DNA from: Folioceros fuciformis
Lineage: Eukaryota
Reading direction: 5' to 3'
NCBI GenBank assembly: GCA_049999805.1
Contig: JBNGIO010006036.1
Coordinates: forward strand, 33,928 to 67,689
Length of the DNA: 33,762 nt
Shown here: positions 97 through 31,926 of the stretch, piece by piece
How positions within the stretch are numbered: the first letter of the stretch is position 1
Layout: every line of letters starts with the position of its first letter
Notes under the pieces: generated by a model
Databases searched by the model: none
Told to the model about the DNA's origin: nothing
The model's input: only the letters and a program-made list of their open reading frames with translations
Position numbers and translations under genes: made by a program

Positions 97-450
97 CAGA
101 GGCAAGTTTAACTTAAGGCCACCACGAGCTGGCATGTGCTATGAGTCCAAGCGGTCCAAAACAATGGTGTGCTGGTTTTACAGGGCGCAAATGGATGCAC
201 GACCAAGAAGCACATGAAGAATTACACACCTTGTCATCTACTCAACCTAGATCCCACCATTGTCACCAGCAATTGGGTGCCCTTGTTGACTATCCCTGCT
301 AGGTCTGCAAGAGGGCAGATGATGCAACGGTGGATACCATCTATTCTATTTGCAGCCTCCTTTGGCCGAGGTGCCAGAGCAGCTGTGGTATTGCCCCTCA
401 TGTGCTACTCCTCCTATAGCCTTAGTGCTATGGCACACAAGCTTCACTAG
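97..450 (+). pseudogene. Ty3/gypsy integrase C-terminal region ending in a PHD finger (degenerate)
   Basis: Reading across frameshifts: HVL*VQAVQNNGVLVLQGANG...KHMKNYTPCHLLNLDPTIVTSNWVP / DYPC*VCKRADDA (288-326) / CNGGYHLFYLQPPLAEVPEQLWYCPSCA (323-406). This is a C4HC3 PHD pattern with a short internal deletion. It is followed by a PPT and an LTR end. Confidence 0.7.
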
Positions 451-453
451 CTT

Positions 454-469
454 GGGGGGAGGGGGGGGG
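454..469 (+). other. Polypurine tract (PPT)
   Basis: GGGGGGAGGGGGGGGG lies between the integrase/PHD remnant and an LTR-like repeat. Confidence 0.7.
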
Positions 470-470
470 C

Positions 471-625
471 AGCAGTAAGTGCACCATCAGCTCCAACTTA
501 CTCCCATGACTCACTTTCTTTTGACGGAGTTGTTCATGAACTGCAAGATTGTTGGGACGAGGCATACTCAGGACTGTCCCTGCTGGGACTCCTCGAATCT
601 TGCCAACTTGTTGCTTTTCACGACA
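471..625 (+). repeat. 3' part of an LTR (copy A), 5'-truncated
   Basis: Diverged direct repeat of 1172-1334. Ends ...CACGACA and follows a PPT. Confidence 0.65.
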
Positions 626-1171
626 GCTGACAAAAGGTTGCTAGGGAGGTCAGGACAGGTAACATGGTCATTCTGCAATCGAGACTGGCAAAACTCATGA
701 GACTGCCTCAACTACTATGCTTGAGCATAAGAAGGAAGGTAAGGCAAGTTCGCATCCATAGCTTTCAATTTGTACCTTAGCATAGTATGAATAATAGCCA
801 TTATTCCGTATTATTCCATTAATATGGGAACATAGTTATTACGAATCATTGATAGATTTAGGTAGCTAGAAAAAGGCTAGAACCCAGCAAGTGTGAACAT
901 GCTGGAAAAAACCCTAGAAAGGCACTAACACTAAGAGGCAAAGGTGCAAGGAAGTTAGTCTTTGAAGTTGCACCTAGAGAGTACCACATATTGAGGAGAA
1001 AGGCCTTGTACTCATGTGACTAGAATACAGAGTTTGTTTTTGTGTGCCTCTCATATTAGCTTGAAGGTGTGACTGACGAACTCCCAACTAGCGAGCGTAC
1101 CTTGTGCTGGCCCAATTGCTTACACACCAACTCTTCTGATTCCCGCTCATCACAAATGAAAGCCCTTCGGA

Positions 1172-1334
1172 AGCAGTAGGTGCACTATCAGTTCTAACTT
1201 ACTCCCATGAGCATGACTCACTTTCTTTTGACAGAGTTGTTTCTGAACTGCAAGATTGATGGGATAAGGTGTACTCGGGACCATCCTTGCTAGGACTCTC
1301 CTCGAATCTTGCCAACTTGCTGCATTTCATGACA
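1172..1334 (+). repeat. 3' part of the same LTR (copy B)
   Basis: Matches 471-625 with substitutions and small indels. Ends ...CATGACA and abuts the copia gag remnant. Its 5' boundary was not found. Confidence 0.65.
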
Positions 1335-2881: not shown

Positions 2882-4800
2882 TCAACCGTTTTTCTGAAGT
2901 GGCAGTAGATAGGAACCTGTTAAGATTGATACAGCAAAGGAATGACCACTGTCATCAATTACAGCCGGATTCCAATTCAGGCGGTCTAGCAATACCTCTC
3001 CAACATCTGCATTGACTCCATCCGCTTTGACTTGGTCCTCACCTGTGACAACGCAAATGGACAAACGGACGTTGGTACCGTGCACTGTACTGTGAAGTGC
3101 CAAAACATGGACACAAATTTCTCTAAAACAGATCAAGACAGCATAAACAAGACTCGGAAGGAACCTCCATCCTCTTGCAGGTCGGAAGTCCACAGAGTAA
3201 GATTGTCCCGCAGCAGCTGCATGATGAGGGTGCTATCCTTGTAGGATTCCTCACTTAGCGTGTCGAGTTCAGCAATAGCTTCATCAAATGCTTGCTTTGC
3301 CAGATGGCATGCCCTGCTCTCCAGGAGACAAAACATGGCAGTACATCAAAATGAAGCACCAAAAGAAGGGACGACAGCAACAGTCTCCCCTAAAGTGCAT
3401 ACCGCTCAGGAGAGTTTAGAATTTCGTAATAGAAGACAGAGAAATTAAGGGCCAGTCCAAGCCTGATGGGGTGCGTGGGGGCTAGGTCGGTAATAGCAAT
3501 GTTCGAAGCAGCCTGCAGGACATTGATGCATCACAGTCTGGAACAACCAAACCCCTAACATCTAATGTCCCCAATACAGCGCAGCAAGCCGTATCCGGAA
3601 GACAAACCTCATAAGCCTTCAAAGACTGATCTGCAGCTTCTTTTCTGTCACCACCATTTTTAAACTCTGCCAGATAGCGAAAGTAATCACCTTTCCTGCT
3701 TTCACAAATGCCGTCACATACGAGCTTCAAGACAGCCCCCTTACATGCGCAGATATAACACCAACAACTATGGAACAAAACATTAGAATCCAATCCTACA
3801 TCTTGTAATAGAAGACGGTAGACTCGCCAGTTGTAGATGAAGGAATCAGATGCTCATCAATGATTGAGAGTATGTCCCTACATATCTTGGACAGTTCAGC
3901 CTCAACTCTGTGCCGATAGTCCTTGATGCGCTTCACATTCTGGTCATTGCTCTTGCTCTCCTCCTTCTGTTCGATGGATGACATGATCCTCCACGAGGCT
4001 CTTCGGGCACCAATCACATTTTTGTAGCCCACGGATAGGAGATTTCTTTCCTCCACTGTCAGCTCCATGTTTAACTTGGCAACTTTCTTCATTGATTCAA
4101 CCATCTCTGGAACAGCAGAACATAGGGGCAACCTCCACCGCCATTCATGTGAGAAAGCCAGAAAGCTCGGCAACTTACTTTCAAGAATGCACACATGCCA
4201 CCATTAACTGTCAGTCAGCAACTCTTCCACACACACAAAACAACACCCAAAACTGATTCGCTGACAGAGAGGGCACATCGAAGCCCCCGCTCAGTGAGAT
4301 ATTTCGTTGGAGCACCTTCAAAACACAAGCTCCATACGCTGGACTTGTTGATCCATAAGTAATACCAAGAAGTGACCTCGATAGAAAGCCAAACAAGTGA
4401 CAGAGAAAAACACCTAAAGCATCTCTTTAAAGACAAGAACATGGCGTCGACTAGAGGCGTCGAGCCATTCATAGAAACTGGACAAACCCAAAGACAATGG
4501 TCATACTGCACGATAATATGTCTCTGCAATCTCCTCTTCCACATTCGTGAGGCGGCCAAGTTAGAGGAGGCGGGCAGAGGTTCTGCGGCTGGCCGCCCCA
4601 TCAGCCGCGCATCGAAACTGGCTGGCAGATAGATTCGTTTCCAACAGCACGAGAAAGGAGACTCAAGAAAGGACAAGCAAGACCAAAACAAACATAAAAA
4701 AACTCAGAATCGACACAAAAGACTCACCGTCGTATCTTTCTGCCTGCTCGGCAAGCTTAGCCATGTAAACGTGCCCGTCGCGGTCCTTCTCGTTGGTCAT
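2882..4800 (-). CDS. GF14: 14-3-3 protein (GF14/GRF, epsilon-group-like), 7 coding exons, 261 aa
   Basis: Exons with GT-AG introns: 4800-4728, 4106-3800, 3695-3608, 3512-3403, 3313-3165, 3042-2996, 2893-2882; total 786 nt, in frame. Canonical motifs present: [94 protein letters not shown]. The last micro-exon (KNG*) is the least certain part. Confidence 0.95.
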
Positions 4801-8820: not shown

Positions 8821-11519
8821 ATCAAGGATTATGTGATTTGTGTAACGGAACACCAAGTGTTTTCTTGTGGCATTGTCACTTAGGACATATGTCTCAAAAA
8901 GGAATGAAGATCTTATCTCATTTTGGTTACGTCCCTGCTTTTGACTTCTCCGACTTCTCTGTGTGTGAGCACTGTTTGTATGGGAAATAGACGAAGTCAC
9001 CACATGGAGCAAGAGGTAAACACAAAAGTAAACCTCTTGAGTTGGTTCACAGTGATGTTTGTGGACCTATGCCCACTGTATCGTTAGGCGGTGCATCTTA
9101 TTTTGTCACTTTCATTGATGACTTCTCACGCAAGGTGTGGGTTTATCCTTTGAGGAAAAAGGATGATGTTTTGACAGTGTTTTAGAAATTCGTCACCCCT
9201 GTGGAGAATCAGTCTGGCCTCTGACTAAAGTGTCTAAGGACAGACAATGGGGGAGAGTATGTCTCGAAGGCTTTCTAATCATTCTGTGATTCCAAGGGAA
9301 TCAAGAGAGAATTGACTGCGCCGTATACTCCTCCCAAGAATGGTGTGGCTAAACGGATGAACAGGACCATCTAGGAGAGGATGCGTAGTTTATTGTCAAA
9401 CTCTGGATTGCCTAACGGATTTTGGGCAGAAGCAGTGGTTACTACGGTGCATCTTATTAACAGATCTCCTAATAGGGCTGTGAATGAACAGGTTCCAGAG
9501 GAGATGTGGTCTGGCAAGAAGCCGTCATACAAGCATCTACGAGTGTTTGGCTGCAAGGCATACTACCATGTCCCGAAAGAGTTTCGGGACAAGTTGGCAC
9601 CCAAGTCCAAGAAATGTATTTTTCTTGGCTATGATGAATCTGGTGAGATGGGATATCGTCTGTGGGATCCAGAGGCCAAGAGGATGGTTTGCAGCAATGA
9701 CATGTTCTTCAATGAGACCAAGATGCACAAGAAGCCTACTCCAACTGTGAAGGTGCGACGGGTGGTTTTCCAAGAAGATGGACTTGACCGTCCTACGCAG
9801 GTTGAACATCGTGATATGCAGGAACAAGTTCCTCCACTTGTACAAGAGGAGAGAGTGCAACCAGCTCCGGTCGAGGCGCCATTGCTTCGTAGGTCAGGAA
9901 GGATCTTACGTCCTCCTCACAGGTATGTTGCATCTCTTGATTATGTCATGCTAACGAATTGTGGGGAGCCCTCTTGTTACCAAGAGGCCATGTCAGTGAC
10001 TAACAAGGACAAGTGGGAGAAGGCAATGCAGTCGCAGATGGATTCACTACATAAGAACCAAACTTGGGAGTTGGTTCGGTTGCCTAGGGGCAAGAAGACG
10101 TTGCCATGCAAATGGGTGTATAAGATGAAGGACATACCCCATTATGGCAAACCCAAGTACAAGGCACGATTGGTTGCTAAGGGTTTTAAGCAACAGCAAG
10201 GTATTGACTTTGATGAGATTTTCTCAGTAGTTGTCAAAATGACTACTTTGCAATGTGTTCTTGCTTTGGTTGCGAGGAACGACATGGAACTTGTCCAAAT
10301 GGATGTGAAGTCGGCATTTCTACATGGTGATCTCCAGGAAGAGGTATACATGCAGGAACCAGAGGGTTTCATTGAGAAAGGCAAAGAGAATCTGGTATGC
10401 AGGTTAAAGAAGAGCCTTTACAGTTTGAAGTAGGCACCCAGAGAGTGGTATTTTAAGTTCTACTCATTTATGGTTTCTCAAGGCTACAAACGTAGTGAGG
10501 AGGATCATTTCCTCTATATGAAGCAAGCTAAGGATGGAAGCTTACTCATTTTGGTCCTCTATGTGGATGATATGCTAATTGCTGGAAAAAGCAGTGATGG
10601 GATTTCAGTGTTGAAGTCAAAGTTGAAGGCTCGCTTTGACATGATAGACTTGGGAGAGGCAAGCCATATTCTTGGCATGCGTATTCGTCAAGAAAGACAC
10701 AAGCATTTGCTTTACTTGTCTCAGACTGCATACATTAACAAGGTGCTTCAACGTTTCAACATGTAGAAGGGGAAGGTATTGAGTACTCCGTTGCCTCCAT
10801 ATGTGAAACTTTCAAGCAAGGATTGCCCAAGCTCTACAGAGGACAAAGCTGAAATGACGAAGGTTCCATACTCATCAACTATAGGGAGTTTGACGTGTGC
10901 AATGATTGCTACACATCCTGACATTGCTTTTGCAGTGGGAGTGGTTAGCAAGTTTATGTCAAACCCTAGCAAGAAGCATTGGGAGGCAGTGAAAGGAGTT
11001 ATGAGGTACTTAAATGGTACAAAAGCTTTGTGCTTATGTTTTGGTAGTGAAGATGCATCTGACGTGGGATATACGGATGCTGATTATGCAAGGGATATGG
11101 ACAAAAGAAGGTCCACATCAGGCTATATCTTCATGTGCACTAGAGGGGTAGTCTCATGGCGATCTCGTTTGCAATCGTGCATAACGCTATCTACCACAAA
11201 GGCCGAGTATGTTGCAGCAACTAAGGCGTGCAAGGAAGCCATGTGGCTTGCTCGTTTAGTGGGAGATTTGGGGATCAAGGTTGAGGTGCCAGTGTTGCAC
11301 TGTGATAGCCAGAGTGCTATCCAATTGGCGAAGAATCTAGTGTTTCATGCGAAGACCAAATATGTGGAAGTGAAGTATCACTTCATTCGAAAGGTTTTGG
11401 AAGACAAGAGGGTACAGCTTGTCAAAGTTGACACTAGTCAGAACCCTACAAATGTTCTTACCAAGGGGCTCTCTACAGAGTAATTCGCACAAGCTCGAAC
11501 ACTCATGGGCATGAGGTAG
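8821..11519 (+). pseudogene. copia pol remnant: pre-integrase, integrase, RT, RNase H
   Basis: LWHCHLGH...CEHC, LELVHSDVCGP, RTDNGGEY, PKNGVAKR, YKARLVAKGF, QMDVKSAFLHG, LYVDDMLI, GYTDADYA, TTKAEY. Several premature stops. Confidence 0.9.
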
Positions 11520-11561: not shown

Positions 11562-11851
11562 TGTTGGGTTATTAAAGCCCAATGTGCTTAGACTAATGTG
11601 TTTAGTCTAAGATTAGTGTCTAGTTAAGTATCATTAGTTTAGATTAGCTTAAGCTAATATGTAGGAAGGTTCTTGCGCAGCTTCCTGTGCGCTTCTTGTG
11701 AAGCTTCCTAGGGAGCTCTTCTAGAGGGTATATAAACCTCCTTGAGCTCCCTTGCAATGTGAGACTCTGTGTGTGAGAGTGTGACCTATCTTTCTCCTCT
11801 CCTCCTTGCCTCCTCCTCTCCTCCTTCACCATGTGGCTCCTCTAGCGATCC
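11562..11851 (+). repeat. 3' LTR of copia element 1, lacking the terminal TTCA
   Basis: Matches the 5' LTR with about 6 substitutions and one 11-bp indel by manual alignment. Ends GCGATCC and is fused to the RT of element 2. Confidence 0.9.
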
Positions 11852-14800
11852 AATTTGAGACAAGCAAAGCAAATGCTTTTGTCTATCTCGACGAATATGC
11901 ATGCCAAGAATATGGCTTGCCTCTCCCAAGTCTATCATGTCAAAGCGAGCATTCAACTTTGACTTCAACGCTGAAATCCCATCAATGCTATTTCCAGCAA
12001 TTAGCATATCATCCACATAGAGGACCAAAATGAGCAAGCTTCCATCCTTAGCTTGCTTCGTATAGAGGAAATGATCCTCCTCGCTACGTTTGTAGCCTTG
12101 AGAAACCATAAATGAGTGGAACTTAAAATACCACTCTCTGGGTGCCTGCTTCAAACCATAAAGGCTCTTCTTTGACTTGCACATCATATTTTCTTTGCCC
12201 TTCTCAATGAAACTCTTTAGTTGCTGCATGTATACCTCTTCCTCAAGATCACCATGCAGAAATGCCAACTTCACATCCATCTGGATAAGTTCCATGCCAT
12301 TCCTCGCAACCAAAGCAAGAACACATCGCAAAGTGGTCATTTTGATAACTGATGAGAAAATCTCATCAAAGTCAATACCTTATTGTTGCTTAAAACCCTT
12401 AGCAACCAATCGTGCCTTGTACTTGGGTTTGCCATAATGGGGTATGTCTTTCATCTTATACACCCATTTGCATGGCAATACCTTCTTACCCCTTGGCAAC
12501 CGAACCAACTCCTAAGTTTGGTTTTTATGGAGCGAATCCATCTACGACTGCATTGCCTTCTCCCACTTGTCCTTGTTAGTCATTGACATGGCCTCTTTGT
12601 AACAAGAGGGCTCCCCACAATCCGTTAGCATGACATAATCAAGAGATGCAACATACCTCTTAGGAGGACATGAAATCCTTCTTGACCTCCAAAGCACAAG
12701 CGCCTCAATCGGAGCTGGTTGCACTCTCTCTTCTTCTACAAGTGGAGGAGCGGGTTCTTGCACATCATGATGTTCAACCTGTCCCTAACGGTCAAGTCCA
12801 TCTTCTTGGAAGACCACCCGTCGCACCTCCACAGTTGGAGTAGGCTTATTGTGCATCTTGGTCTCATTGAAGAACACGTCATTGCTGCAAACAATCCTCT
12901 TGGCCTCTGGATCCCATGGACGGTATTCCATCTCACCAGATTCACCATAGCCAAGAAAAATACATTTTCTGGACTTGGGTGCCAACTTGTCCCGAAACTC
13001 CTTTAGAACATGGTAGTATGCCTCGCGGCCAAACACTCGTAGATGCTTGTAAGACGGCTTCTTTCCAGACCACATCTCCTGTAGAACCTGCTCATCCACA
13101 GCCTTATTAGGAGATCTGTTAATAAGATGCACCGTAGTAGCCACTACTTGTGCCCAAAATTCGTTAGGCAATCCATAGTTTGACAACAAACTATGCATCC
13201 TCTCCTGGATGGTCCTATTCATCCGTTCAGCCACACCATTTTGGGGAGGAGTATATGGGGCAGTCAATTCTCTCTTTATTCACTTGGAATCATAGATTGA
13301 CTGGAAAGCCTTCGAAACATACTCTCCCCCATTGTCTATTCTCAAACACTGGAGTCGTAGGCTAGACTGATTCTCCATAAGAGTGACGAATTTTTGAAAC
13401 TCTATCAAAACATCATCCTTTTTCTCAAAGGATAAACCCACACCTTACGTGAGAAATCATCAATGAAAGTGACAAAATAAGATGCACCACCTAATGATAC
13501 AATGGGCATAGGTCCACAAACGTCACTGTGAACCAATTCAAGAGGTTTACTTTTGTGTTTACCTCTATCTCCATGTGGTGACTTCTATTTCTCATACAAA
13601 CAGTGCTCACACGGAGAAATCGGAGAAGTCAAAAGCAGGGACGTTACCAAAACGAGATAAGATCTTCATTCCTTTTTGAGACATATGTCCTAACTGACAA
13701 TGCCACAAGGAAACACTTGGCTATTTTGCTACACAAATCACATGATCCTTGACAGTGGTTACATGAAGTGAGTACAAAGTGCCACACTTCGATCCACGAG
13801 CTAACATAAGAGAAACTTTGGAGATCTTCCAAGAATTATCCCCAAACCAACAGTGGGGGCCAGCGTCATCCAACTGCCCTATGCCAATTATGCTTTTTGT
13901 TAACTTCGGAACATGCTTAACATCCTTCAGTACGAATGAAGAAGATCCGTTGTCAAACTTCAGCTGCACATCACCAACGAGTGTAATCTCGCATGCATAG
14001 TTATTTCCAAGCTGAGCACATCCTTTCCTAGTAGCATCATAAGTGCTAAACCACTCCCTATGCGGAGTAACATGGAAAGATGCTCCAGAGTCAATTATCT
14101 AATTAAAGAATAAGTGACTTTCCACAGCTGTCAGTTGTGCAGAATCGAAGGAAGAAGAGATAAGAACATCTCCATCATCAACAGAATTCACCTCGTTAGG
14201 CTTGATACTCGGACTTGCCTTGTTATCACTCTGCTTCTTCTCCTTTCCTTTGTCCTTCTTGAACTTCTCGCAGTCCCTTCTGATGTGACCCTTTTTGTGA
14301 CAATGGTAACACTCAACATTGTTACGACTACAAGATTTACTACGGGAANNNNNNNNNNNNNNNNNNNNNNNNNNNNNNNNNNNNNNNNNNNNNNNNNNNN
14401 NNNNNNNNNNNNNNNNNNNNNNNNNNNNNNNNNNNNNNNNNNNNNNNNCAATGGTAACACTCAACATTGTTACGACTACAAGATTTACTACGAGAAAGGC
14501 TTCGCTCCTTGTACTTCCTCTTTGAAGTGGACCTTCCTCTTACCATGAGGGCAGTGGAACCTTTCAAAGGTTCCATATTCTTCTTGTTCACCTCTTCTGT
14601 TAAGAGGCTACCTTCTACATTTACATGGTGAGACCACTGGCAGGAGCAGAATTACTCAAAGCTGTACGAAAGGTGTCCCAACTCTCAAGTAATGTGACCA
14701 AAAGAAACATAGCTCTCACAAAATCTGGGAACGAGATACCTTGAGATGAGAGCTGGATGAAAATGGTATTGAACTCATTGAGATGATCGGACATCCTCAT

Positions 14801-16377: not shown

Positions 16378-17436
16378 CTATGCATACAACAGGTGTGTGG
16401 GCTGTCTAGGCAGAACCCTGTGCTCAAGTGCATATGGATGCAATATCTCCATAAAGGTAACACTTTTGGAAATTGTGGGCTGCAAAGTGATAGGGTTGAT
16501 GAGCTTATATGCCTTGGTTATCTCAGTATAGCCAACAAAAACCAAAGGAAGAGCCTTGTTATCTTATTTTCGCTGCTTCTCTCCAGGGACATGCAAAAGC
16601 CTTTGAGCCAAAAACGCATAAATGCATGACACTTGGCTTTCTATTCTAGAAAAATTCATAGGGAGTTTTATTTGGCAGAGCTATGGTGATGAGCTTGTAT
16701 GAGGTGTAAGTAGCTATGACCACCGCTTCCACCCAATATGGAGATAAAAGGCCAGACCATAGCAACATGGACATGGTCATTCCCATTAGCATGTGGTTCT
16801 TCCTTTTCGCTACACCATTCTGCTGTTGTGTGTAGGGGACAATAAGCTGATGTTTGATGCCTCTATCTTCCAGGAATTTTGTAAAAGCATTACTAACAAA
16901 TTCACCGCCATTGTCAAATCTGAAGACCTTGAGGAGGCAGCCAATTTGCCTTTGCACCATCAACAGCCACTCTTGGAGCAAAGGAAAAGTCTTGTTCTTC
17001 CAGTGCATAGGGAAGGTCCAAGTATATTTGCTGAAGTCATCGGAAGTGTGAGGTAATATTAGCCCCACCTAGTGAAGAACTTGCAGTCTTCCTGAGATGT
17101 CTGAATGCACTAAATCAAGGACGACTGTTGTTCTATGAGTAGGTGTGCAAGGAAATGGTACTTGATGCTACTTTGCCAATGCATAGATCTCACATATAGG
17201 AAGCTCCTTAAAACATGAAGGTAAGGGTTCTCTGTAATAGTCTTGTCTAGAAGATGCCTAGAGTTTAGCCTTGTTAGCATGACTAAGGTCTACATGCCAC
17301 AGCTTGGCTAGTTGAGGAGCTTTTAAGCTACGAAGCGTGGTAGAATAAGCCTGCTTTCAGTGTGTGCAAGATATGTCTAAACAATACAATTTTGCCTCAA
17401 GAAAGGCCTTAAAAATATAAATATCATGGAAATTAC

Positions 17437-17569
17437 GTCTAGAGAAGCAACATGTATCCTCTGACACGGTAAGGATCAAGTCTAGAGAAGCAACATGTAT
17501 CTTTAGACACGGTAAGGATCAAGTCTACAGAAGCAACATGCATCCTCTAACATGGTAAGGGTCAAGTCT
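17437..17569. repeat. 43-bp tandem triplication inside the copia 3 protease region
   Basis: GTCTAGAGAAGCAACATGTATCCTCTGACACGGTAAGGATCAA-like units start at 17437, 17480 and 17523. Confidence 0.9.
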
Positions 17570-17816
17570 TTCATTTTCATGAGTCTGATCAAAGACATAA
17601 GGTTCTTAGCCATCTTAGGTACGTATAAGACATGAGGAAGAACTAACATTGTGTCATCATGCAACAGAAATTTGTAGATACCTGAACCAAAGATACTTAA
17701 ACAAGTGGCGGTTTTCTCATCACCAAGGTAAACCTTCTTTGGGACAGAGGAAAGAGTCAGGCAAGTGAAAAGAGATTCATCGTGACAAATATACATTGTT
17801 GCCCCCATTGTCCGAG

Positions 17817-20094
17817 TGTGAACCTCCAAAGTTTGGGGTAGTGGTTTGTTTTGGTTGAAAAAGGGTGAATAGTGGTATTGTTTGGTTTTCTTTTTCTACT
17901 TATTTTCCCTAATTTTTCTTTATTTTCCGGTCATTTTTCCTATTTTTCCTTGTGCTAATAAGGTTAATTGACCAGTAAATAATTGGTTTGGTTATTAGAG
18001 TGGGTATAGGTTTGGTCCCAGACTTGGAAAAGTTTAGGTCTGGTACCGGACCATAGAGTTGGAAAGGTTTGAATTTAGGTTTGGTTATTGGTTTAATATT
18101 AATTAAAAATAGTATCAAATAATTGTTTGAAACTAGGAGCGGGAATATGGGGCTATGTCAAGGTGGTTTGGCTGGCTAACAGGGTTGCATGATTGGCTGA
18201 ATGGCCATGAGGGCCGCACCCTAACTAGGTCAGAACTGCGGCCACGCCCATCTCCATTCCTCTACCTCTCTTCCTTCGTCTTCCTCCATTCTCCTCTTGT
18301 CATTTCCTCCTTGATCCAAGCTGCAGGCAGAAGGACCCTGAGAGTTGGGATTGAATGCGCACCGGAGGAGCTTTAGCCGAGCTGCAAGACTTGGGCATTG
18401 CAGGGACTAGCAGCACAACCCGGTCGGTCTCCTGATCCACCTTCATCCTCGATTTCCTCTATTCAGTTCCCATCGGCGCCTTGTCTTGATTCTTCGAGGC
18501 AGACAGTTTTGATCAGCCAGTTAACCATCTAACCGTTGCGTCCAGCTATCCAGCAGGCTGCTCTGCTGGATGGCTGGACCCTAAACCCTGGATTCCAGTG
18601 TGATTTTCCTCATCCCGCTTCCTATCCCTTGTTTTGATCTTGCAGCAACCCCGTAGCTTGGTTTCGCTAGCCTGATCCCCCCTGCCCCATTTCGATTTTT
18701 TTTAGCCAACTACCAGCGTCCTATGCCCAACCACTCATGTAGCCCGATCTCACCAAAGCCCACCACCCTGAGCTTAGCTTGCCATCCTGATCCACCTCAC
18801 CTGGCTAGCAAATCACTAGCGCCTGCTGCTAGAGCCCACTGGCACTGTCCCTATCCTCACCGATTTCTCAACCCGCCACCACGTTGCATGAAGCCAAAGC
18901 TGCCGTAGGTTGGAGGAGCCCGGATCCAAACTGGGACCTCTAGGCCAGCTAGGCAGTGCGTTGACGTTGCCATCTCCCACTCCCCGCTAGTGTTCCCCCC
19001 CCCCCCCGTAGAACATCTCTTAGGACTAAACTAACAAACTGACGAGTGCTCCTCCCATGAGGGATGTGCATCAGCCTTTGTGGGAACCGTTAGGGGAGAT
19101 GCTACAGGACTGAAGGTGTCTAGCTCGGAGGCAACCTCAGCCATCATGGGAACAGTGGCAGGAGAAGCCTTTGCCTCAACAATAAGAAGGTGGCGCCCAC
19201 CAGATCTAGAAGAGTGGACAATAACCAAGGATCAACAAAGGGTATTGGTAGGGTCAGTAAGGGGAGTGGCATCTCATCAAGTTGATGGTAGGGTAGACTA
19301 GTCTAGAATAATGGTGTGCTATAAGCTATTGTTTTGGTTGTCGTGTCCTAGTGGTCAACTTGTAGAGAGAGGAAAGGGACTAGAGCTAGGAGTCCTCTAT
19401 AAGAGGCTGTGAGCCTCTAGAACTTGCTTATCACTTTACGATCTCTCTCGGGCTGTCCCTGCTTGGATATAGCAGTGTGTGCCGGCTGTGCATGTTGTGC
19501 AACGTTTGGTAAAGCTTTGAGAAGTGGTGGCCAGGGTTATGGGCCGGGTCACTTTAATTCTTGATCGTGCTTTCCGTGTCGTGCCCCATGATCTGTCATT
19601 CTTGTTTCCTCGCAAGGCTAGAGTGAGTGCCAACCATGCTTGCATGCTGTCTAGTAGGATTGTGGGTGGAGGCATGCTCTTTTTTGGGCTTGTTCTAGTG
19701 ACTCTTGCCAAGTGGGGGAGTCAAGAGGGAAGTGTAGAGGGTAGTGGTGTTGTTGATGGTGCTGGAGTGAGTGAGTAAGTGAGTGAAGTAAGTGAGGGAA
19801 GTCGTAGTCCTGAGAGGTTAGTGTCGTTGTAGTGGCTCGAGTGAATTTGTGGGCACCGAGAGAGGTGCAGTCAACCGTTAGACAATGAGGAATGTCCCAC
19901 ACTTGATCGGAGCGGGAGGGGAGCCCTCAAATCCGTCATCGAGTTGATTGAGTCTGACCCTCCATCCATAGCAGCAAGGAACCACATCGCTCCTTCGTGG
20001 GAACGAAACCCAATGTCTCAACAACAATGGGATAAGTGTGGACACTAAAGGTCGAACCCTTTGGCAAACAGTTGACCGGGGTTTTGCCACCACA
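17817..20094 (+). mobile_element. Solo LTR of family X, 2278 bp
   Basis: TGTG...CACA ends with an imperfect 5-bp TSD (CCGAG / CCAGG). The host copia protease frame rejoins when it is removed. Left end matches 1-96 and right end matches 31927 onward. TATAAG at about 19398; no TE coding domains recognised inside. Confidence 0.85.
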
Positions 20095-20636
20095 CCAGGT
20101 ACCAACTATTAGCCTCACTTGCTTATAGTATTTAGATAGATGGTAAGAATCTTGACAACTGGCTTGCCTAAAATGTGTGTTGAAAAATCCACTATATGCT
20201 CATCTTTGGGGTGCTGGGTTGTTGAATTTGCAGTTGTAGGGCGAGGTACAACCCGCTAAGGTTCACTGGCCTTCTTCTTGCGACATTCCCTAGCCCTGTG
20301 TCCAAGTAATCCACACCAATTCCAGTAACCTGAGGGATCAACTGAGGCCAAGGGCCACACTGCGGTTGCCTAGGGAGGAAGGCTATTAGGCCCAAAAATA
20401 ACAATCAAAGGATTACTTCGATGGCCCACCGCACTCGTTTCCGGGGTAAGAAGAGAAAAATTAGTTTTCCAACAAATGGTCATTTTCGGCAGACTCGAGT
20501 TTATCAAAGTAGAAGACATGCCAAACCCCTGGCTAGTAAGTGGACGAGCAAATTGTGGCCTGAGTACACTTGCAACTGTCCAGGTTAATTACGCCCCACC
20601 TTCTACATGATGGCAGAGTACCGGATCTTGAGCGGA

Positions 20637-21443
20637 CCGTCCTTGTGTCACCTCATTAAGTGGCCTATAATCCCCACACATCCTCTTCTCTGTTCAATTA
20701 CCATGTACATCTTTCTTTGGTGGGAGTATTGTGGCTGTTGCATATTTTGACTCTGAAGATCTAATCAACCCCACTTCCAACAACTCTTAACACTTCTTGT
20801 TCACAATCTCATTCTCCACCTTCCTCAAACGATATGGCCTCCTAAAAACTAGCTCCTTAGTCTTAAGACAAATTTTGAACTTAAATGTCTTGTGTCTACC
20901 CTTTCCTTATTGGAAAAAGCAAACACTTGCCTTCTATCATCTAAAATCTTCCCTATGCTTAACATCCATCTCCTCACAAACATCCCAATGAAAATTTGCA
21001 AACTCCCGTTTTTCACAAATGTTCATACAACCAACTAAACCAACACTGTTTCTAAACTCATGCCCAGCTTCCACTGGCTTTCCACCCACCTTCATTTGCT
21101 TACTTCTGTTAAAATCATCACCCAATGTACTCTCAACTTTCCTCATCCTCTTGGTCTCTTCCCCGACTTATGGCTTAGTGTCATCACTTGATTCACACGA
21201 ACCTTCTACTTTTAATCTTGTCATCAAAATAACTTTCTATTTCTGCTTCCGCTCTTGATAAATTTTTATGGACATCATAAGCAACTTGAGCGTATTCAAA
21301 TCCATAGCTTGCCCAAGATTTTTATTTCTCTGACCACATGTTAAACTCTTTGCGTAAGTGGAATCCATCTTGAAGCCCATTGCTCTTTCGCTATATGTAG
21401 GTGATGGAGCATCCCACACATTTCTTCTGACATCAAATACCAT
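20637..21443 (-). pseudogene. Second gypsy fragment: DNMT C-terminus (motifs IX-X), linker and RT N-terminus
   Basis: MVFDVRRNVWDAPSPTYSERAMGF...RNKNLGQAMDLNTL, then RRPYRLRKVENEIV...PPKKDVHGN*TEKRMCGDYRPLN. Diverged paralog of 24433-23640. Confidence 0.88.
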
Positions 21444-22400
21444 TTAACTCATCCCTATGTTAAGCTATTAACATATTATCCATTGCCATAGGCATTATCC
21501 TTCTAAACAACTCCGCTCTATGTGCGGCTATCTTTAACCACTTATTAGGATCGTCCAAATCCACTATAGCATTCACCTTGTCTTCTAACATCCCAGATAG
21601 CTGTGGTCTACGCCCAAACAACAACATGTACGGTGAAAACTTTCCCAGCGATGCTTGCCTACTCATCCTATAACCCATCGCAAGAAATGGTAACATCCTA
21701 CCCCACTCACTCTTGTCCATTACCAGAGAAATTTTCCTCACAGCACTCTTACAAGTCTGTACCATTCTTTTTGCCAAACCATCAGCCTCCGGGTGATTTC
21801 TTAAAGTTACCCTATGATCAATAAGGTACTGATTTAAAAATTCATCAAATTCTCCCATAAATTCAATACCTTAAAACTTCTGGACACTCCCCAAAATCAC
21901 TCAACACATGATTAAGAAATGCTTCCTTAATGTCATGTGACTTCTTCTCTCTCAAAGGCACCAAAACTATCCACTTAGAAAAATGTTCTATCATCACTAA
22001 CACATATTTAAAACCTCTACGCGTGACTGGTAACTCTCTAGCCAAATCCAAACTCCACCTATAAAACATCCCCCTAATAGGCAACGGATGAAGCTCAGAA
22101 GTTTTGCCTGAAAAACTTGCCTTCACCCTATCACAAACCTCGTAAGTGGACACCACCTTCTCTACTACATCCATCATTCCTTTCCAATAATAATTGTTCA
22201 TGAGCAAACTCAAGGTTCTTTTTGTGCCAAAATGTCCTAACTCCACAAAAATCTTTCTTGCCAAATTCATTCTTTCTTTAGGTCTTGGTACCACCTTCAT
22301 ATTATCTTTAAACAATAACTTATTGTCAACCCATACATATCTCCTACTTCGCTTTGTCACCCTATCATTCTCCTTCTCTATTAATGCCTCCTGATTGCCA
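21444..22400 (-). pseudogene. gypsy integrase (zinc-binding and DDE core), C-terminally truncated
   Basis: LGHFGTKRT...YYWKGM...EVCDRVK, LHPLP...RWSLD...IEHFSKW, HPEADGLAKRMVQT, SPYMLLFGR. Confidence 0.9.
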
Positions 22401-22559
22401 CCCTTTTTCACCCTCTCTAATGTACTCTTATCTTCCCACACATCTACTGACATCGAAGGAACTCCCAACTCCACCAAATTCACCAAGTATGCACTCGGTG
22501 TCCATCTGGACACCACCAGATTATAGTGAACCCTAACATTCTTATCAAAATCCTGCCTA

Positions 22560-23930
22560 GCAACTGTTGAATCCCATGAACTGCCTAATGGATTCTTTGA
22601 CAACACATCTGCATTTGCGTGTTTCACTCCCGCCCTATGCTCANNNNNNNNNNNNNNNNNNNNNNNNNNNNNNNNNNNNNNNNNNNNNNNNNNNNNNNNN
22701 NNNNNNNNNNNNNNNNNNNNNNNNNNNNNNNNNNNNNNNNNNNTCCGTCACCAACTTAAATTGAGCCCCATACAAATAAGGCCTAAAATGCAATACTGCC
22801 CATACCGCCGCAAAACATTCCCCATGATATGAGGAATAATTCTCTGCAGAATTGTTACTCCTGCTTGCATATGCTACCACATGCTCCACCCACTCTCATC
22901 AGCCTGTGCCAGCACTACTGCCAAACCAAGTTTGCTCCAATCTATATATAACTTGAACTTTCTATCAAAATTGGGTCTTGTCAATAAAGGCTTGCTCATC
23001 GAAATGTCCTTTATCTCCTTAAATGCCCTCTGCTGATCTTCTCCCCAAACCCACACTGCATCTTTCTTTAACAACATTGTCATCGGTTTTACCACCACAC
23101 TATGGTTTGCCACAAAATTGCGATAATAATTTACCAATCCTAAAAAGGAGCCCAAAGTTCCCACATATGAAGGTGGCATCATATTGCTATCGCTTCAACC
23201 TTGACGTCAAATGGTACCCCTAGGCACTATAAAATGTCTCAAATATGCTATCTTAGAGGATCCAAACCTGCACTTTTGTGGATGACATGTCAAACCAACC
23301 TCCTTCAGTCTATCCAACAGTCGCCTAACATTCTCCTTATGTTTTTCCACATTGTTACTAAAAATTATTATATCATTTATGTAACATCTAGTCAAAGACA
23401 ACCCCCTCAATGCTTGATCCATCGCTCTCTGAAAAGCACTAGGAGCACTCTTCAACCCAAATGGGATAACCACCCATTCCCACAAACATCTATTACCCCA
23501 AAAAGCAGTCTTCTTCTTATCCTCCTCTTCAATTTCAATTTGATTAAAACCACCCCTCAAATTCAATGTTGAAAGTATCTTACATTCACCAATTGGATCA
23601 AAAATTTCCTCTAGAGTTGGCATTGGATACCTGTCCATAGGTGTCACTTCAGTAAGCGGCCTATAGTCACCACACATTCTCTTTTGTGTCCAATTGCCAT
23701 GCGCATCCTTCTTTGGTGGAAGCACCATAGTTGTAGCATACTCTGACTCCGAAGACCTTATCAATCCAGCTTCAAGCAGCTCTTGACAATTCTTGTCCAC
23801 AATTTCATTCTCCATTTTACTCAAACGATATGGCCTTTTAAAACCGGTTTAGAAGTTTTAAGCCGAATCTTAAACTTAAACGTCTTGTGCCTGCCCAACT
23901 CCTTATTGGAGAAAGCAAATACCTGCCTCC
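22560..23930 (-). pseudogene. gypsy reverse transcriptase and RNase H
   Basis: RMCGDYRPL, KKTAFW, PFGLKSAP, CYINDII (degenerate YIDD), SFLGLVNYYRNFV, KLYIDWS, VAYASRS, GECFAAVWAV, HANADVLS. Frameshifts, plus an N gap at 22644-22743. Confidence 0.93.
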
Positions 23931-24262
23931 TACTTTCAAGAATCCTTATAAAATCTCCTTATCTTCCAAAGTTATCTCATCGGAAATATCCCACTAAGAA
24001 TCCATACATGTTTCTCACAAACCTTAACCTCACAACTTGAGCTAATCACACTCCCAGCTTCCCCCTCTACCTTTGTCCCACATCTCATCTGCTTGTTCTG
24101 CTTACCCCCATCACCTAAAACCTCGTCATGCTCTCTCATTCTTTTAGTCTCCCCCTAGCGTCTTAACCTTCATTTCTTCTTACTTTACCCAAACTATGTC
24201 TCTCCAACCTTGTGCTCAAAATCTTTCCACTTTCTCTTCCACTCTTGATAACCTTTTATAGA

Positions 24263-25208
24263 CATCATAAGCCACCTAATTGTATTTAAATCCATAGCTT
24301 GTCCGAGTTTTTTATTCCTAATCTCAAATGTTATGCCTTCCACTTCAGTAGTATTTGTACCAAAACCCATCGCCCTCTCTCTCTCCATGAGAGATGGTAT
24401 ATCCCACACATTCCTCTTCGTATCGAATATCATTCCAGGTCCATCCCCCTTAAATGCATTGGCACCTTCAAAACTAACAAATGTCGGTAATGCCTCCTAA
24501 GCTCACCCTTTTTATTTACACAATAAAAGGGTTGTCTCTCATCTGAAGTCACCTGCTTACTCACTCGTCCCTCATTCAATATCTTATCAACTATGAAATC
24601 ATCATTCCTACGCCATTGACTCACATGCATATGCAACAAATGCTTAGGCATCATGTTATTCCAAAAACAGCGATGCCTATGAGCCCTAGATCCAAACTAC
24701 ACTGCATCCAACTTTATAGGCTCACCCAAAAAATAATTGATCTCCTCAAAATCTCGCCTCAATGCCATTCTTCTGTCCATTTGTGAATCTACATTCTCAA
24801 TAAAAAAAAACCACATTCTTTCCTCTGATGTTTTTGCACCAAATTCAAAATCCTAATTAGCTCATAAAATAACACCGACCTACAATCCAACAAGCCTTTT
24901 CCCTTGCCTGCCATTGAATGCCCTTGACATTCCCAACCAGCTATTATTAGATTAATTTCTTCCTCCACTCGAAATTGTATCAATCCAATAAGCCTAACAT
25001 CTTGCGACCAAGCAAAAAACGCTTGCTTCATAGCTTCAACCTTTAATTGTTCAGGATACTTTTTACATAATTTAAACACCCTTGCCTTCGCAATTGCTTG
25101 ACAAACTTCATCTGGGTCACAATAAATGTAACGTCTAACTACATACCCAGCGGCCAACACAGCCTCTAGGCCAGATGCAATCCCAGCAAACAATTCAACC
25201 ACAACCAA
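24263..25208 (-). pseudogene. DNMT3-like C5 cytosine-specific DNA methyltransferase catalytic domain embedded in gypsy pol
   Basis: Motifs in canonical order: I VVVELFAGIASG, II YIYCD, III QDVR, IV IIAGWECQGHS (Cys codon 24929-24927), V RSVLFYELIRIL, VI FIENV (24798-24790, after a slip in the A9 run at 24802-24810), VIII AHRHRCFWNN, IX ERERAMGF, X RNKKLGQAMD. One stop (24699-24697) and two frameshifts. Confidence 0.92.
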
Positions 25209-25539
25209 TCCATACTCAGACGAACTCAATGTCACAAGTTTATTACACACAGGTTCAAGTTTACAAACTGCTTCCTTTGTATAAGCTTGAATTTTATCAT
25301 CTAGCTGAAACTCAATCTGCCGCTTTTCAAGTTCTCTAAGTTCAATTTTAGCTAATGCTCTACCAACATTCTCTCATTGCAACTTCTTCCACTCTGTTAT
25401 GACTATATTCTTTTAAACATAACTTATCCATATGACGCTCCACCCACAATTTATCATCTTCTTCCTCCTGTTCATCCCAAGAAGTTGCCATGTTTACCAC
25501 ACACGCATCTTGCATGTCCTCCTGTAATTGCAACTTAAG

Positions 25540-26000
25540 TGGAATTGTTGCTACTCTTATTCCTTCACCTTGTCGCCACCCTGGACGATAGTAAAACTCC
25601 TCTGTTCATAAGTCCACCCCTGCTTCATGCATGAACAAAGCCTCTGTTCCCAAAATAACATCAAAATTTCCAAATTTGACAATCAAATATTTCATATCAA
25701 TCACTGTCTCTTCTTATGTCCCAGGCTTAAAACATAACTGCAATTTCTCCTTAGTCTCTCCCATCACTGCCTCCAAACCTTCATTGGCCATCCTTATCTT
25801 CCATCTTATCTCTTGTATATCTCCCTTTCTCAGTCCCATAGCATACGCTATGTTGAAATGAATCAATGTAGGTTGCGCCCCCGAATCTATTAATACCTTC
25901 TCCAGCGCAAAACCTTCTATCAAAAATTCACACCCACCATTGTTCAGAAATGCAATTCCTGGTCTAACTTTTGTTCTGTCGCCATCATTTCGCATATTGC
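25540..26000 (-). pseudogene. gypsy aspartic protease
   Basis: KVLIDSGAQPTLI...IRMANEG...FDVILGTEAL...EFYYRPGWR, with two in-frame stops. Confidence 0.85.
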
Positions 26001-26165
26001 TATTGAAACAAAGTGAAATTGTCTTGTTTAACTTTCCATCCACTCTACTATCACGTCCTATAAAAGTTCTCGAATTTTTGACTCGTTCACCCCCACTTTG
26101 ACGCCCAATTCTAACACACTTCAAATACAACCAATCACATCACTCTGAGACACCTGCATTCTCTT

Positions 26166-26395: not shown

Positions 26396-27500
26396 ACATC
26401 TTCATCCAAATTGCAAATATACTTAAAACAAACTTCCGTCTCATTGTGCATCCCTATATCTATCACCAGCTGGCTAGTCCGATTGTAAAACATAAGTGCT
26501 GTCTCATCAGGCTTCCTCTTCAAATTTGCCAACTCATCTTCATGGCATTAACAGACGGAAACCTCATCTCCAATCAAATGAAAAATTCCTTCACTGGCTC
26601 AGCATGTTTACTGGTCACCACCAAATCCATGAAACTTCTCAAGTAAAACTTGTAAGCATCTCCACACAACAAGTTCCCTAACAGAGTAAATTCATATATG
26701 GGATCTAATTCAACGTCCTCACCTCCACACACCTGTAACTTAATCATATAAAACATGCACATTAATTGGTTAATGGACACCGATGACTTGGGATGCCCGA
26801 AATACTTCTCACTCTTTGCAGGTAGTACCACTCCCCCTCTGCCTTTCCTTTCCAACCCAAAAGTTTTTTTAGTCGACAAGTTTAACATTTGATTGTTTGT
26901 TCTTCTCACCAACTTTCCCACATCATTCACTTCTCCCGGCTATCCTTGCACTTCCATAGGCTCCACAGTCCGATTCTGTACGTCCATGACAAGTTCTTTA
27001 TCTATAATCACAAACCCTCTTTCCTTACACACATGCCTCTACTCTTCGTCCGACAGTTGTAACCTTTCTTCCCTTGCTTCTACCCCTACAGATATTTTGT
27101 GTCTTTTATCAATGTCCCCGTTAAGATCTACGTTTCCACCTTCTCCCTCTATCTCTCTACCTAAAACACTCGCCCTATGTGAATTTCCTCCTTCCTCATC
27201 CAACGCACTGCCTGGAATATCACTCCCCCCAGACTCTTAGTGTTTCCTCCTTCCTCATCCAATGCACTGCCTGGAATATCACTCCCCCTAGACTCTTAGT
27301 GTTTCCTCCTTTACCCTTCATCTTTGACTGCTCAGCCTTTTTCTTAAATCCTCTGTCTGAACTCTTATCTTCCATCAGTCTCTTTTCACCTCTCCCAACT
27401 TTTACACTGTCTGCCTCACTTCTCGACCTAGGCAGCACATCAGCTTGATTAACACTTGCCCGCATCACTCTGACACCTTTGATCACAAGTCTCTTCATGT
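26396..27500 (-). pseudogene. gypsy gag remnant
   Basis: LPAKSEKYFG...LLCGDAYKFY...LEMRFP / LKRKPDETALMFYNR...FKYICNLDEDV resembles a retrotransposon gag capsid region, directly upstream of PR. Start approximate. Confidence 0.65.
27184..27301. repeat. 59-bp tandem duplication
   Basis: 27184-27242 and 27243-27301 differ at two C/T positions. The duplication shifts the gag-region frame. Confidence 0.9.
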
Positions 27501-31077: not shown

Positions 31078-31926
31078 TGTGGTGCTAACACCAATTTTAT
31101 GGCCAGAGGTTTTGCCCAACGATGGGGATTGGATATCGAGCGGGGTTGTGGAGCAGTACACCTAGTAGACGGGTGTATGCAACATCGGGCGACATTGAGT
31201 CATGTAGTTAGTTTACGGATAGGGGTTCACTATGAGCAAATTTATTTTACCATTACAGACTTAGGATATGGTCATGACCTGATTCTAGGGATGCCATGGC
31301 TCGAGGATTGGGAACCCACCATAGCTTGGCGTGGGAGGGAGCTCACCCTCCTAGTCCATGGTCGACACTTAGTTATCCAAGGTGGACGGCCTTAGGAACC
31401 TCAAAATCAGGGTTCGGCTGTAGAGGTGGCTTGTGATCCTAGGTGCCAGGCTACACCTTCCTCTTTGAGTGTTATTAAAGAGCAACTTTGCCCAACGCAA
31501 CCCGATCAATTACAGGCACCTGAACATGATAAGCCCTTGCAAGAATTATTAACCGAGTTTGACAATGTTCTAATTAACAGGTTGCCGACAAGGTTACCCC
31601 CATCCCATGATGTTGATCATTGAATTGAGCTTCTACTAGGTATTCATAAGCCCCCGTATCGTCTTGTGTATCGGATGTCCCCACTAGAGATAGAAGAGTC
31701 GGCTCGCCAGGTTGAGGAGTTGGTGAAAAGGGGCTATATATGACCATCCACCTCCCCCTATGGGGCGCCTATTCTGTTCTCACGGAAGAAAAACGGTAAG
31801 CTTCGTATGTGTATTGATAACCAAGGCCTTAATTCGGTAACTAAGTGAAATATGTTTCCTTTACCCCGCATTGATGAGCTTTTGGAGGGACTAATTGGTG
31901 CCCGATATTTCACCAAGTTGGATATG
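31078..31926 (+). pseudogene. Chromovirus-like Ty3/gypsy protease-RT remnant
   Basis: CGANTNFM...[63 protein letters not shown]...YFTKLD. Cut on both sides by LTR insertions. Confidence 0.88.

Follow-up and report, generated by a model that had tools for sequence, protein, structure and literature searches.

A probable 3′ end of a Gypsy-DNMT3-type retrotransposon, decayed and carrying a broken PHD finger behind its integrase tail

Ty3/gypsy elements with a DNMT3-related methyltransferase in Pol have been described as KnitGypsy-Dnmt3 (PMC5890265), whose repeats are arranged as A-coding-B-A-B; de Mendoza et al. 2018 (PMC5890265) describe this arrangement, in the legend of their Fig. 4, as "the same as that of a DIRS retrotransposon." In the part of a 2026 preprint considered here (bioRxiv 10.64898/2026.05.21.726589), Gypsy-DNMT3 is treated as a streptophyte family. 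The same part describes EpiLTRs, which likewise combine DNA methyltransferase domains and a chromatin reader in a single Pol of LTR elements; however, EpiLTRs join DAM and a DNMT4-related DNMT to a chromodomain and come from chlorophytes and Euglena, whereas the lineage described below is of streptophyte type and joins a DNMT3/DRM-like enzyme to a PHD finger. PHD fingers are known in retrotransposons, as stated in portions of PMC6673714, PMC8557442, and bioRxiv 10.1101/2021.11.30.470311. Specifically, Chlamydomonas REM1 and other PHD-bearing transposons (Perez-Alegre 2005; Kapitonov and Jurka 2003; both via PMC6673714 and PMC8557442) present the PHD as a recurrent accessory domain, as here, but no DNMT is reported for them in the portions of PMC6673714 and PMC8557442 considered. 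Chromoviruses likewise carry a histone-tail reader C-terminally on their gypsy integrase, and the reader is presumed to help choose the integration site (Gao et al. 2008, as cited in the portion of PMC6673714 considered). They differ in that their reader is a chromodomain and not a PHD zinc finger, and the likely ligand is H3K9me for chromoviruses compared with, putatively, the H3 N-terminus here. The term "PHD" does not occur in the main text of de Mendoza 2018 (PMC5890265) or in one supplementary text file, and the literature texts searched contained no passage linking a PHD finger to Gypsy-DNMT3; Fig. 4c or the PDF supplements of that paper may nevertheless depict one.

The DNA analyzed here is a stretch of 33,762 nt (the window). 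It is transposon-rich eukaryotic DNA in which Pfam reveals a 14-3-3 gene, several Copia fragments, and a DNMT-carrying Ty3/gypsy element on the minus strand, and it contains three 100-base runs of N. A separate gypsy fragment lies near its start, at 98-1334. We interpret this fragment as the dead 3′ end of a Ty3/gypsy element of the streptophyte Gypsy-DNMT3 lineage (KnitGypsy-Dnmt3 type), with a probability of roughly 80%; so placed, it adds a dead member to a family already known. The features of the fragment and its left flank are as follows.

1-97, no strand assigned: end of a very high-copy repeat that is unrelated to the element, lies outside it, and truncates the gypsy fragment
98-303, plus strand: what remains of the C-terminal integrase region that follows the catalytic core, read in frame 1 and interrupted by in-frame stops at 109-111 and 142-144
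285-326, plus strand: start of the PHD finger, read in frame 3 as VDYPC*VCKRADDA, with zinc ligands 1 and 2 at 297-299 and 306-308 and a stop at 300-302
323-406, plus strand: remaining half of the PHD finger, read in frame 2 as CNGGYHLFYLQPPLAEVPEQLWYCPSC, with the pattern C-x4-H-x2-Y...WYCPSC
453-469, plus strand: polypurine tract (a G-run, read directly), directly upstream of repeat B1
468-625, plus strand: repeat B1, ending in CACGACA, 82.5% identical to 1169-1334
626-1168, plus strand: repeat A (the A2 position of A1-coding-B1-A2-B2), exactly between B1 and B2
1169-1334, plus strand: repeat B2, ending in CATGACA; the similarity to B1 stops at the same point

We place the start of the fragment at 98, where it is cut by the unrelated repeat, because three observations agree on this point: positions 1-97 have an inverted match of 94% at 17816-17912; in sequencing runs of the same organism, contigs reach a depth of ~1e5 over 1-97 compared with tens from 142 onward; and contigs and loose ends from that organism part from the window at 96-98. 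At 17912-17816 (minus strand), the same 97 nt run on into Copia sequence. These runs, which we used for depth, diverged contigs, and other copies, may be the window's own source sample, so the evidence drawn from them is not independent. Some tblastn alignments continued weakly into 34-97 with their first ~20 residues; since 1-97 is an unrelated high-copy repeat, this extension was rejected as spurious. The 97-nt sequence, ending in ...GGAGGTTCACAC, thus occurs twice in the window, in inverted orientation and each time against a different transposon, and probably represents the end of a repeat of very high abundance. As a separate observation, the differences between one of the runs (X3) and positions 1-1400 of the window are mainly C>T (85) and G>A (65), a bisulfite-like excess that suggests that methylation data may exist for this organism.

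The initial annotation had reported an integrase tail that ends in a PHD finger and is spread over three frames, and this structure is indeed present at 98-406 (+), in frames 1, 3, and 2. Frame 1 reads 112-303 as one integrase-tail stretch, which by tblastn is 41-47% identical over 93 aa to six protein relatives (P0152, P0154, P0155, P0156, P0158, and P0161). The tail is thus homologous to the C-terminal region of Ty3/gypsy Pol integrases, and its relatives show the order RT-RNaseH-IN. Two other readings of the first letters were considered and dropped, namely a frame change at 145 and a frame-2 reading of 98-145, as tblastn alignments to relatives support a continuous frame 1 with two stops. 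Near 286-288 the reading slips from frame 1 to frame 3, in which 10 of the 14 residues at 285-326 are identical to P0154, P0156, and P0158. At 322/323, ~25 nt are absent, and with them eight residues that include the third zinc ligand; alignment A1 of intact relatives gives the missing stretch as DQMLLCDN. In the second half of the finger, the Cys that serves as the sixth zinc ligand is replaced by Tyr (347-349). The pattern CxxC...[deletion]C-x4-H-x2-(Y for C)...WYCPSC, as originally given for this stretch, is therefore accurate, both by direct reading and by alignment to relatives. Six of the eight C4HC3 ligand positions are retained (ligand 3 fell in the deletion and ligand 6 is replaced by Tyr), short of a full C4HC3 set, while all eight are found in P0154 and in most of alignment A1.

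The deletion at 322/323 is a lesion of this copy, since other copies in the same-organism runs are longer at this point. Specifically, a 515-nt contig that spans 161-284 and 323-459 has 67 letters between these segments compared with 38 in the window (29 more), and a loose end reads through beyond 278 as ...DYPCQMC. With three in-frame stops, two frame slips, one zinc ligand lost, another substituted, and the cut at 98, the window copy cannot function, and what the window holds is a broken PHD finger, not a functional one.

A scan with PF00628, which had been proposed as a check, matched the second half of the finger at E=0.0015 (profile positions 19-47 of 47), with a score of 18.9 bits that is under the curated cut-off of 24 bits and does not by itself assign the window copy to the family. 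When the 51-aa ORF in frame 2 was compared with PDB by phmmer, 63 matches were obtained at E<=1; all 60 listed are PHD-finger proteins, the best among the matches listed being UHRF2 (3.9e-7) and ATXR5 (9.3e-7). A linked three-frame tblastn search with P0154 against the whole window gave E=4.8e-28, and identity to the window over the PHD half is 75% for P0154 and 72% for P0156. The sub-cut-off Pfam score and the presence of only half a domain are what one would cite for regarding the PHD-like stretch as a chance match, or as a piece of a host PHD-finger gene outside any retroelement. We consider this extremely improbable, given that linked E-values are about 1e-28, that the finger is contiguous with an integrase tail in the order and spacing seen in 82-86 of 150 gypsy polyproteins (the best 150 of 11,442), and that the G-run and B-A-B repeats of the family come after it. 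The stretch is best read as the end of a gypsy Pol. Chromodomain families gave no Pfam match in the window frames at E<=10. A word-based protein search with the frame-1 ORF at 145-450 gave no match either, a weak negative in that polyproteins above 2000 aa were left out of it.

We found that the PHD finger is the last Pol domain, fused to the integrase and kept across the lineage, and that it is mostly encoded in one polyprotein with a DNMT3/DRM-like methyltransferase. This result comes from a search with the N-terminal half of the integrase of the DNMT-gypsy (21863-22639, minus strand) against 1.84 billion representative proteins, which returned 11,442 matches at E<=1e-3; the best 150 (P0001-P0150) were retained. 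By tblastn onto the window, an integrase-tail HSP (30-330, + strand) was found for 86 of these 150 proteins and a PHD-half HSP (323 onward) for 82; a C4HC3 regular expression matched 90, and 71 matched the window's DNMT region. Among those of the best 150 that reach at least 150 aa past the integrase, a PHD is present in 88 of 91 proteins, and in 50 of 51 that carry a DNMT. Pfam scans of 41 relatives placed PF00628 above its cut-off in 37 (23/24 and 14/17; 25.5-49.5 bits), and PF00145 was detected at E<=1e-3 in 13 and above the 22-bit cut-off in nine. Chromodomain families were absent at E<=1e-3 from the 41 scanned relatives, which in this respect are not chromoviruses. ADD families were likewise absent from the 41, in which the only matches of this kind were PF00628 and weak NSD-type PHD models.

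The position of the methyltransferase differs among these proteins. The order RT-RNaseH-DNMT-IN-tail-PHD was found in 35 of the 36 proteins, among the best 150 of 11,442, that carry both RT and DNMT, and P0087 alone shows the order PR-DNMT-RT-RNaseH-IN of the window's DNMT-gypsy; P0087 is uninformative on the tail because it ends just past the integrase. In one gypsy lineage, the DNMT thus occupies two Pol positions: in 35 proteins it follows RNase H and precedes the integrase, and in the window's element, P0087, and the 38 metagenome loci described below it stands between protease and RT. These two positions pose the question of whether the domain was captured once and then moved or was captured twice independently. 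Six of the best 150 proteins have RT and integrase with no DNMT match; five of them begin near the RT, so a DNMT may lie upstream, and the sixth, P0108, has 828 aa upstream of the RT with no DNMT match.

Some further features of individual proteins are recorded here. P0064 and P0084 have a G-patch domain (PF01585) between DNMT and integrase. In P0108, ~240 residues follow the PHD finger (residues about 1870-2106) and have no Pfam match; they contain what we take to be a resemblance to the (S/N/D)PP(Y/F)-like motif of amino-methyltransferases. In the gene models P0001 and P0151, the integrase region is internally duplicated, probably because gene prediction fused nested or tandem elements.

A word-based search with the C-terminal half of the integrase (21460-21870, minus strand) returned 51 proteins, many of which have PF00628 in precomputed Pfam lists. 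The named matches come from Klebsormidium nitens, Calypogeia fissa, Marchantia polymorpha, and Riccia sorocarpa, and the top named match of the DNMT-gypsy integrase is K. nitens KFL_015960010 (IN+PHD). The K. nitens proteins are not near-identical to the window, with identities of ~47-65% for KFL_015960010 and ~40-53% for KFL_000540030. The best matches of the tail form a tight group (P0152, P0154, P0155, P0156, P0158, P0161, and others; alignment A1) whose members are 81-89% alike. In a quick maximum-likelihood tree of the C-terminal half of the integrase (141 rows, 137 columns, many unresolved forks), the window's DNMT-gypsy falls in a clade of 49 rows (SH-aLRT 97) together with P0087, the A1 group, and the K. 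nitens proteins. This clade contains no RNaseH-DNMT-IN proteins. Fifteen of its 18 sufficiently long rows match the PHD expression, and the other three have PF00628 in precomputed lists. Five of the best tail matches (P0152, P0154, P0156, P0158, and P0161) are also among the rows nearest to the integrase of the window's DNMT-gypsy in this tree. P0108, P0006, and P0058 form a clade in which RNase H and integrase are contiguous.

Genomic loci of the nearest relatives were obtained by scanning metagenome contigs; a scan with P0087 found no relative in them, and one with alignment A1 found 475, from which 80 loci were kept. Thirty-four of the 80 have <4.4 kb upstream of the tail and are uninformative, which leaves 46. 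Domain probes found DNMT-RT-RNaseH-IN-tail-PHD in colinear order in 38 of these 46 (80 of 475 relatives sampled), many with a protease before the DNMT, and all 38 are decayed, with no ORF of at least 500 aa. Four more of the 46 have a DNMT but no RT, for a total of 42 with a DNMT in this sample of 80 of the 475. The domain order in the nearest relatives is therefore protease, DNMT3/DRM-like methyltransferase, RT, RNase H, integrase, and PHD, and the window's DNMT-gypsy shares this order.

The fragment itself stops short of the methyltransferase region. A cytosine methyltransferase in Pol is seen in 42 of the 46 nearest loci (80 of 475) and in the separate element of the window at 24200-25320. 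Given that the fragment has no DNMT and shares neither protein overlap nor DNA similarity with that element, a DNMT in its parent is suggested by relatives only. One could instead take 98-1334 for the 3′ end of a PHD-gypsy that was related but had never carried a DNMT. DNMT-free PHD-gypsies may exist, as four of the 46 loci (L037, L038, L056, and L068; 80 of 475 relatives) have no DNMT, the protease of L038 being followed directly by the RT, and as P0108, with its 828 aa free of a DNMT match, belongs to the clade with P0006 and P0058 in which RNase H adjoins the integrase. We nevertheless regard such a parent as unlikely: among the nearest relatives of the tail, a DNMT was seen at 42 of 46 loci, three of the four exceptional loci look 5′-truncated, and the best matches of the tail belong to the group whose loci show PR-DNMT-RT. 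Descent of the fragment from a DNMT-carrying parent is the reading we prefer.

The DNMT-carrying element elsewhere in the window is composed of the following features.

21445-26139, minus strand: truncated DNMT-gypsy of the same clade (Pfam, tblastn, and tree), without tail and PHD
about 25519-26139, minus strand: its protease
about 24200-25320, minus strand: its DNMT
23207-23848, minus strand: its RT
22641-23194, minus strand: its RNase H
21445-22639, minus strand: its integrase, whose reading breaks at 21445
20625-21443, minus strand: second partial copy (C-terminal part of the DNMT and start of the RT), abutting the broken integrase

The second partial copy is 77-80% identical to 23641-24333, with tblastn RT matches at 20900-20625. 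Compared with PDB, the decayed DNMT ORF of the window gave a weak match to M.HhaI (E=0.001), and the DNMT of P0087 matched plant DRM methyltransferases best (E about 1e-5); because the window ORF matches only M.HhaI, and weakly, the assignment to the DNMT3/DRM-like class rests on P0087, a protein that also matches the Ty3 Gag-Pol structure 7q5b at E=2.3e-91. A word-based protein search with the DNMT ORF, from which polyproteins above 2000 aa were left out, gave no match and is weak as a negative.

The initial annotation had further suggested that the PHD-bearing tail represents the type of 3′ end missing from the truncated DNMT-gypsy. At the level of the lineage, the 50 of 51 proteins and the 38 colinear loci support this suggestion. 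The outcomes named beforehand as contrary, namely no PHD hit, or full-length DNMT-gypsies that end without a PHD alongside PHD-gypsies devoid of the DNMT, did not appear; the PHD was matched, and full-length DNMT-gypsies do end in one. Within the window, the two pieces lie on opposite strands, 21 kb apart, and have no DNA similarity and no protein overlap. Together, they could be thought of as one insertion split by inversion and later insertions, as the fragment supplies exactly what the DNMT element misses, the break lies ~25-30 residues before the fragment's start point, and nested Copia elements fill the region between the pieces. Such a history is very unlikely, however, considering the opposite strands and the 21 kb between the pieces, the second DNMT-RT fragment that follows directly after the integrase of the DNMT element at 21443, the different repeat that cuts the fragment at 98, and the lack of shared DNA. 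The window contains two separate dead copies of the lineage, inserted separately, not one element.

The region downstream of the finger carries the repeats of the family. The polypurine tract of the initial annotation is a real G-run at 453-469, and a G-run occupies the same place in six loci of relatives (L013, L026, L042, L047, L070, and L071). Its LTR end CACGACA stands in part: the motif is present at 619-625, but from the split direct-repeat layout it is the end of repeat B1, outside 97-469, and not of a true LTR. B2 is likely the 3′ terminus of the element, and Copia gag sequence follows on the minus strand beyond it. The window thus shows coding-B1-A-B2, covering only the 3′ part of the A-coding-B-A-B layout of the KnitGypsy-Dnmt3 type, and resembles the described elements in its Ty3/gypsy Pol, its DNMT3-related methyltransferase, and its repeats. 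Diverged contigs from the same-organism runs cross both the B-to-A and the A-to-B junctions, which indicates that the B-A-B layout is a trait of the family and not of this locus alone. Among 14 loci of relatives examined, the six named above show the full arrangement of A1 at the 5′ end, coding region, G-run, and B1-A2-B2, with A beginning in TGTCATG and B ending in CA(C/T)GACA; the other eight have no clear A/B repeats. A DIRS-like repeat layout is in this way tied to an element with a DDE integrase and conserved TGTCRTG...CAYGACA termini.

Several comparisons of these repeats were negative. The CATGACA end that the initial annotation gave for the putative LTR of the DNMT element is a candidate end, and the CAYGACA motif alone is not significant in the window (13 occurrences compared with 7.96 expected; 7 of 100 shuffles reach 13). 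A blastn search of 98-1340 against the rest of the window found no match except that of B1 to B2, the ends of related loci gave only chance-level matches to the window, and the 5′ A1 repeat of the window's DNMT-gypsy was looked for in the window and not located.

Since streptophyte DNMT-gypsies also carry a PHD, a histone reader and a DNA methyltransferase are combined in a single Pol. In the mechanism that we propose, the PHD finger would stand in for the chromodomain of chromoviruses and would tether the integrase, and hence the incoming cDNA, to nucleosomes through the N-terminal tail of histone H3. Judging from its sequence class, the finger would most likely bind H3 unmethylated at K4, which would keep insertions off active promoters. 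The chromatin so bound could also be a substrate for the methyltransferase that the element encodes. This would be most plausible for the sister architecture, RT-RNaseH-DNMT-IN-PHD, in which the methyltransferase adjoins the PHD-bearing integrase; in that form, methyltransferase, integrase, and reader could be a single mature protein.

The preference for H3K4me0 is suggested by structural relatives of an intact finger. The best PDB matches of the finger of P0154 are WSTF (7e-17), CHD4, KDM5 PHD1, KMT2C/KMT2D, ATXR5, BAZ2, DPF, KAT6, UHRF1/2, PHF21A, and AIRE. Most of these look-alikes read H3 unmethylated at K4, and a finger of the P0154 type has no Trp two positions ahead of its His ligand, a residue found in K4me3 readers. 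A reader of the H3K4me0 type is therefore favored, and we give this predicted specificity about even odds.

The animal DNMT3 proteins offer an analogy in which an H3-tail zinc-finger reader and a DNMT3-type methyltransferase are encoded together. The parallel to their ADD-MTase arrangement, drawn in the initial annotation, holds by analogy only: the 41 relatives scanned have no ADD domain, and the reader here is, in contrast to ADD, a single canonical C4HC3 PHD on the integrase, which in the PR-DNMT-RT architecture has RT and RNase H between it and the methyltransferase. Tentatively, and with somewhat less than even confidence, we propose that the whole lineage, whose named members come from Klebsormidium and liverworts, is a self-contained chromatin "reader plus writer," in which essentially every member would have a PHD of the unmethylated-H3K4 class, a DNMT3/DRM-like methyltransferase at either Pol position, and DIRS-like split repeats despite a DDE integrase. 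If true, a single DNMT-IN-PHD protein would follow the same logic as the pairing of ADD and MTase in animal DNMT3. The PHD makes it testable why a retrotransposon carries a methyltransferase, as it may steer either integration or methylation to a defined H3 state. The lineage-wide PHD, the two DNMT positions, and the split repeats give the locus a wider point beyond the relic fragment itself.

The remainder of the window provides some minor observations. The exons of the 14-3-3 protein gene at 3482-4203 (−) match PF00244 at E=7e-41 and represent the sole clear host gene seen. Two Copia Pol fragments, at 9155-10731 and 11848-13424, are inverted with respect to each other and share 91% identity over 1577 nt. 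An inverted repeat of ~439 nt (82% identity) is formed by 19677-20095 and 31926-32363; upstream of each arm there is a truncated gypsy RT fragment (20625-20900, minus; 31528-31935, plus), and the arms may be two copies of one composite or nested insertion. Short tandem arrays occur at 32546-32708, 17432-17569, and 27184-27301, with periods of 41, 43, and 59 nt, and the 59-nt tandem pair lies within the presumed gag-upstream region of the DNMT-gypsy.
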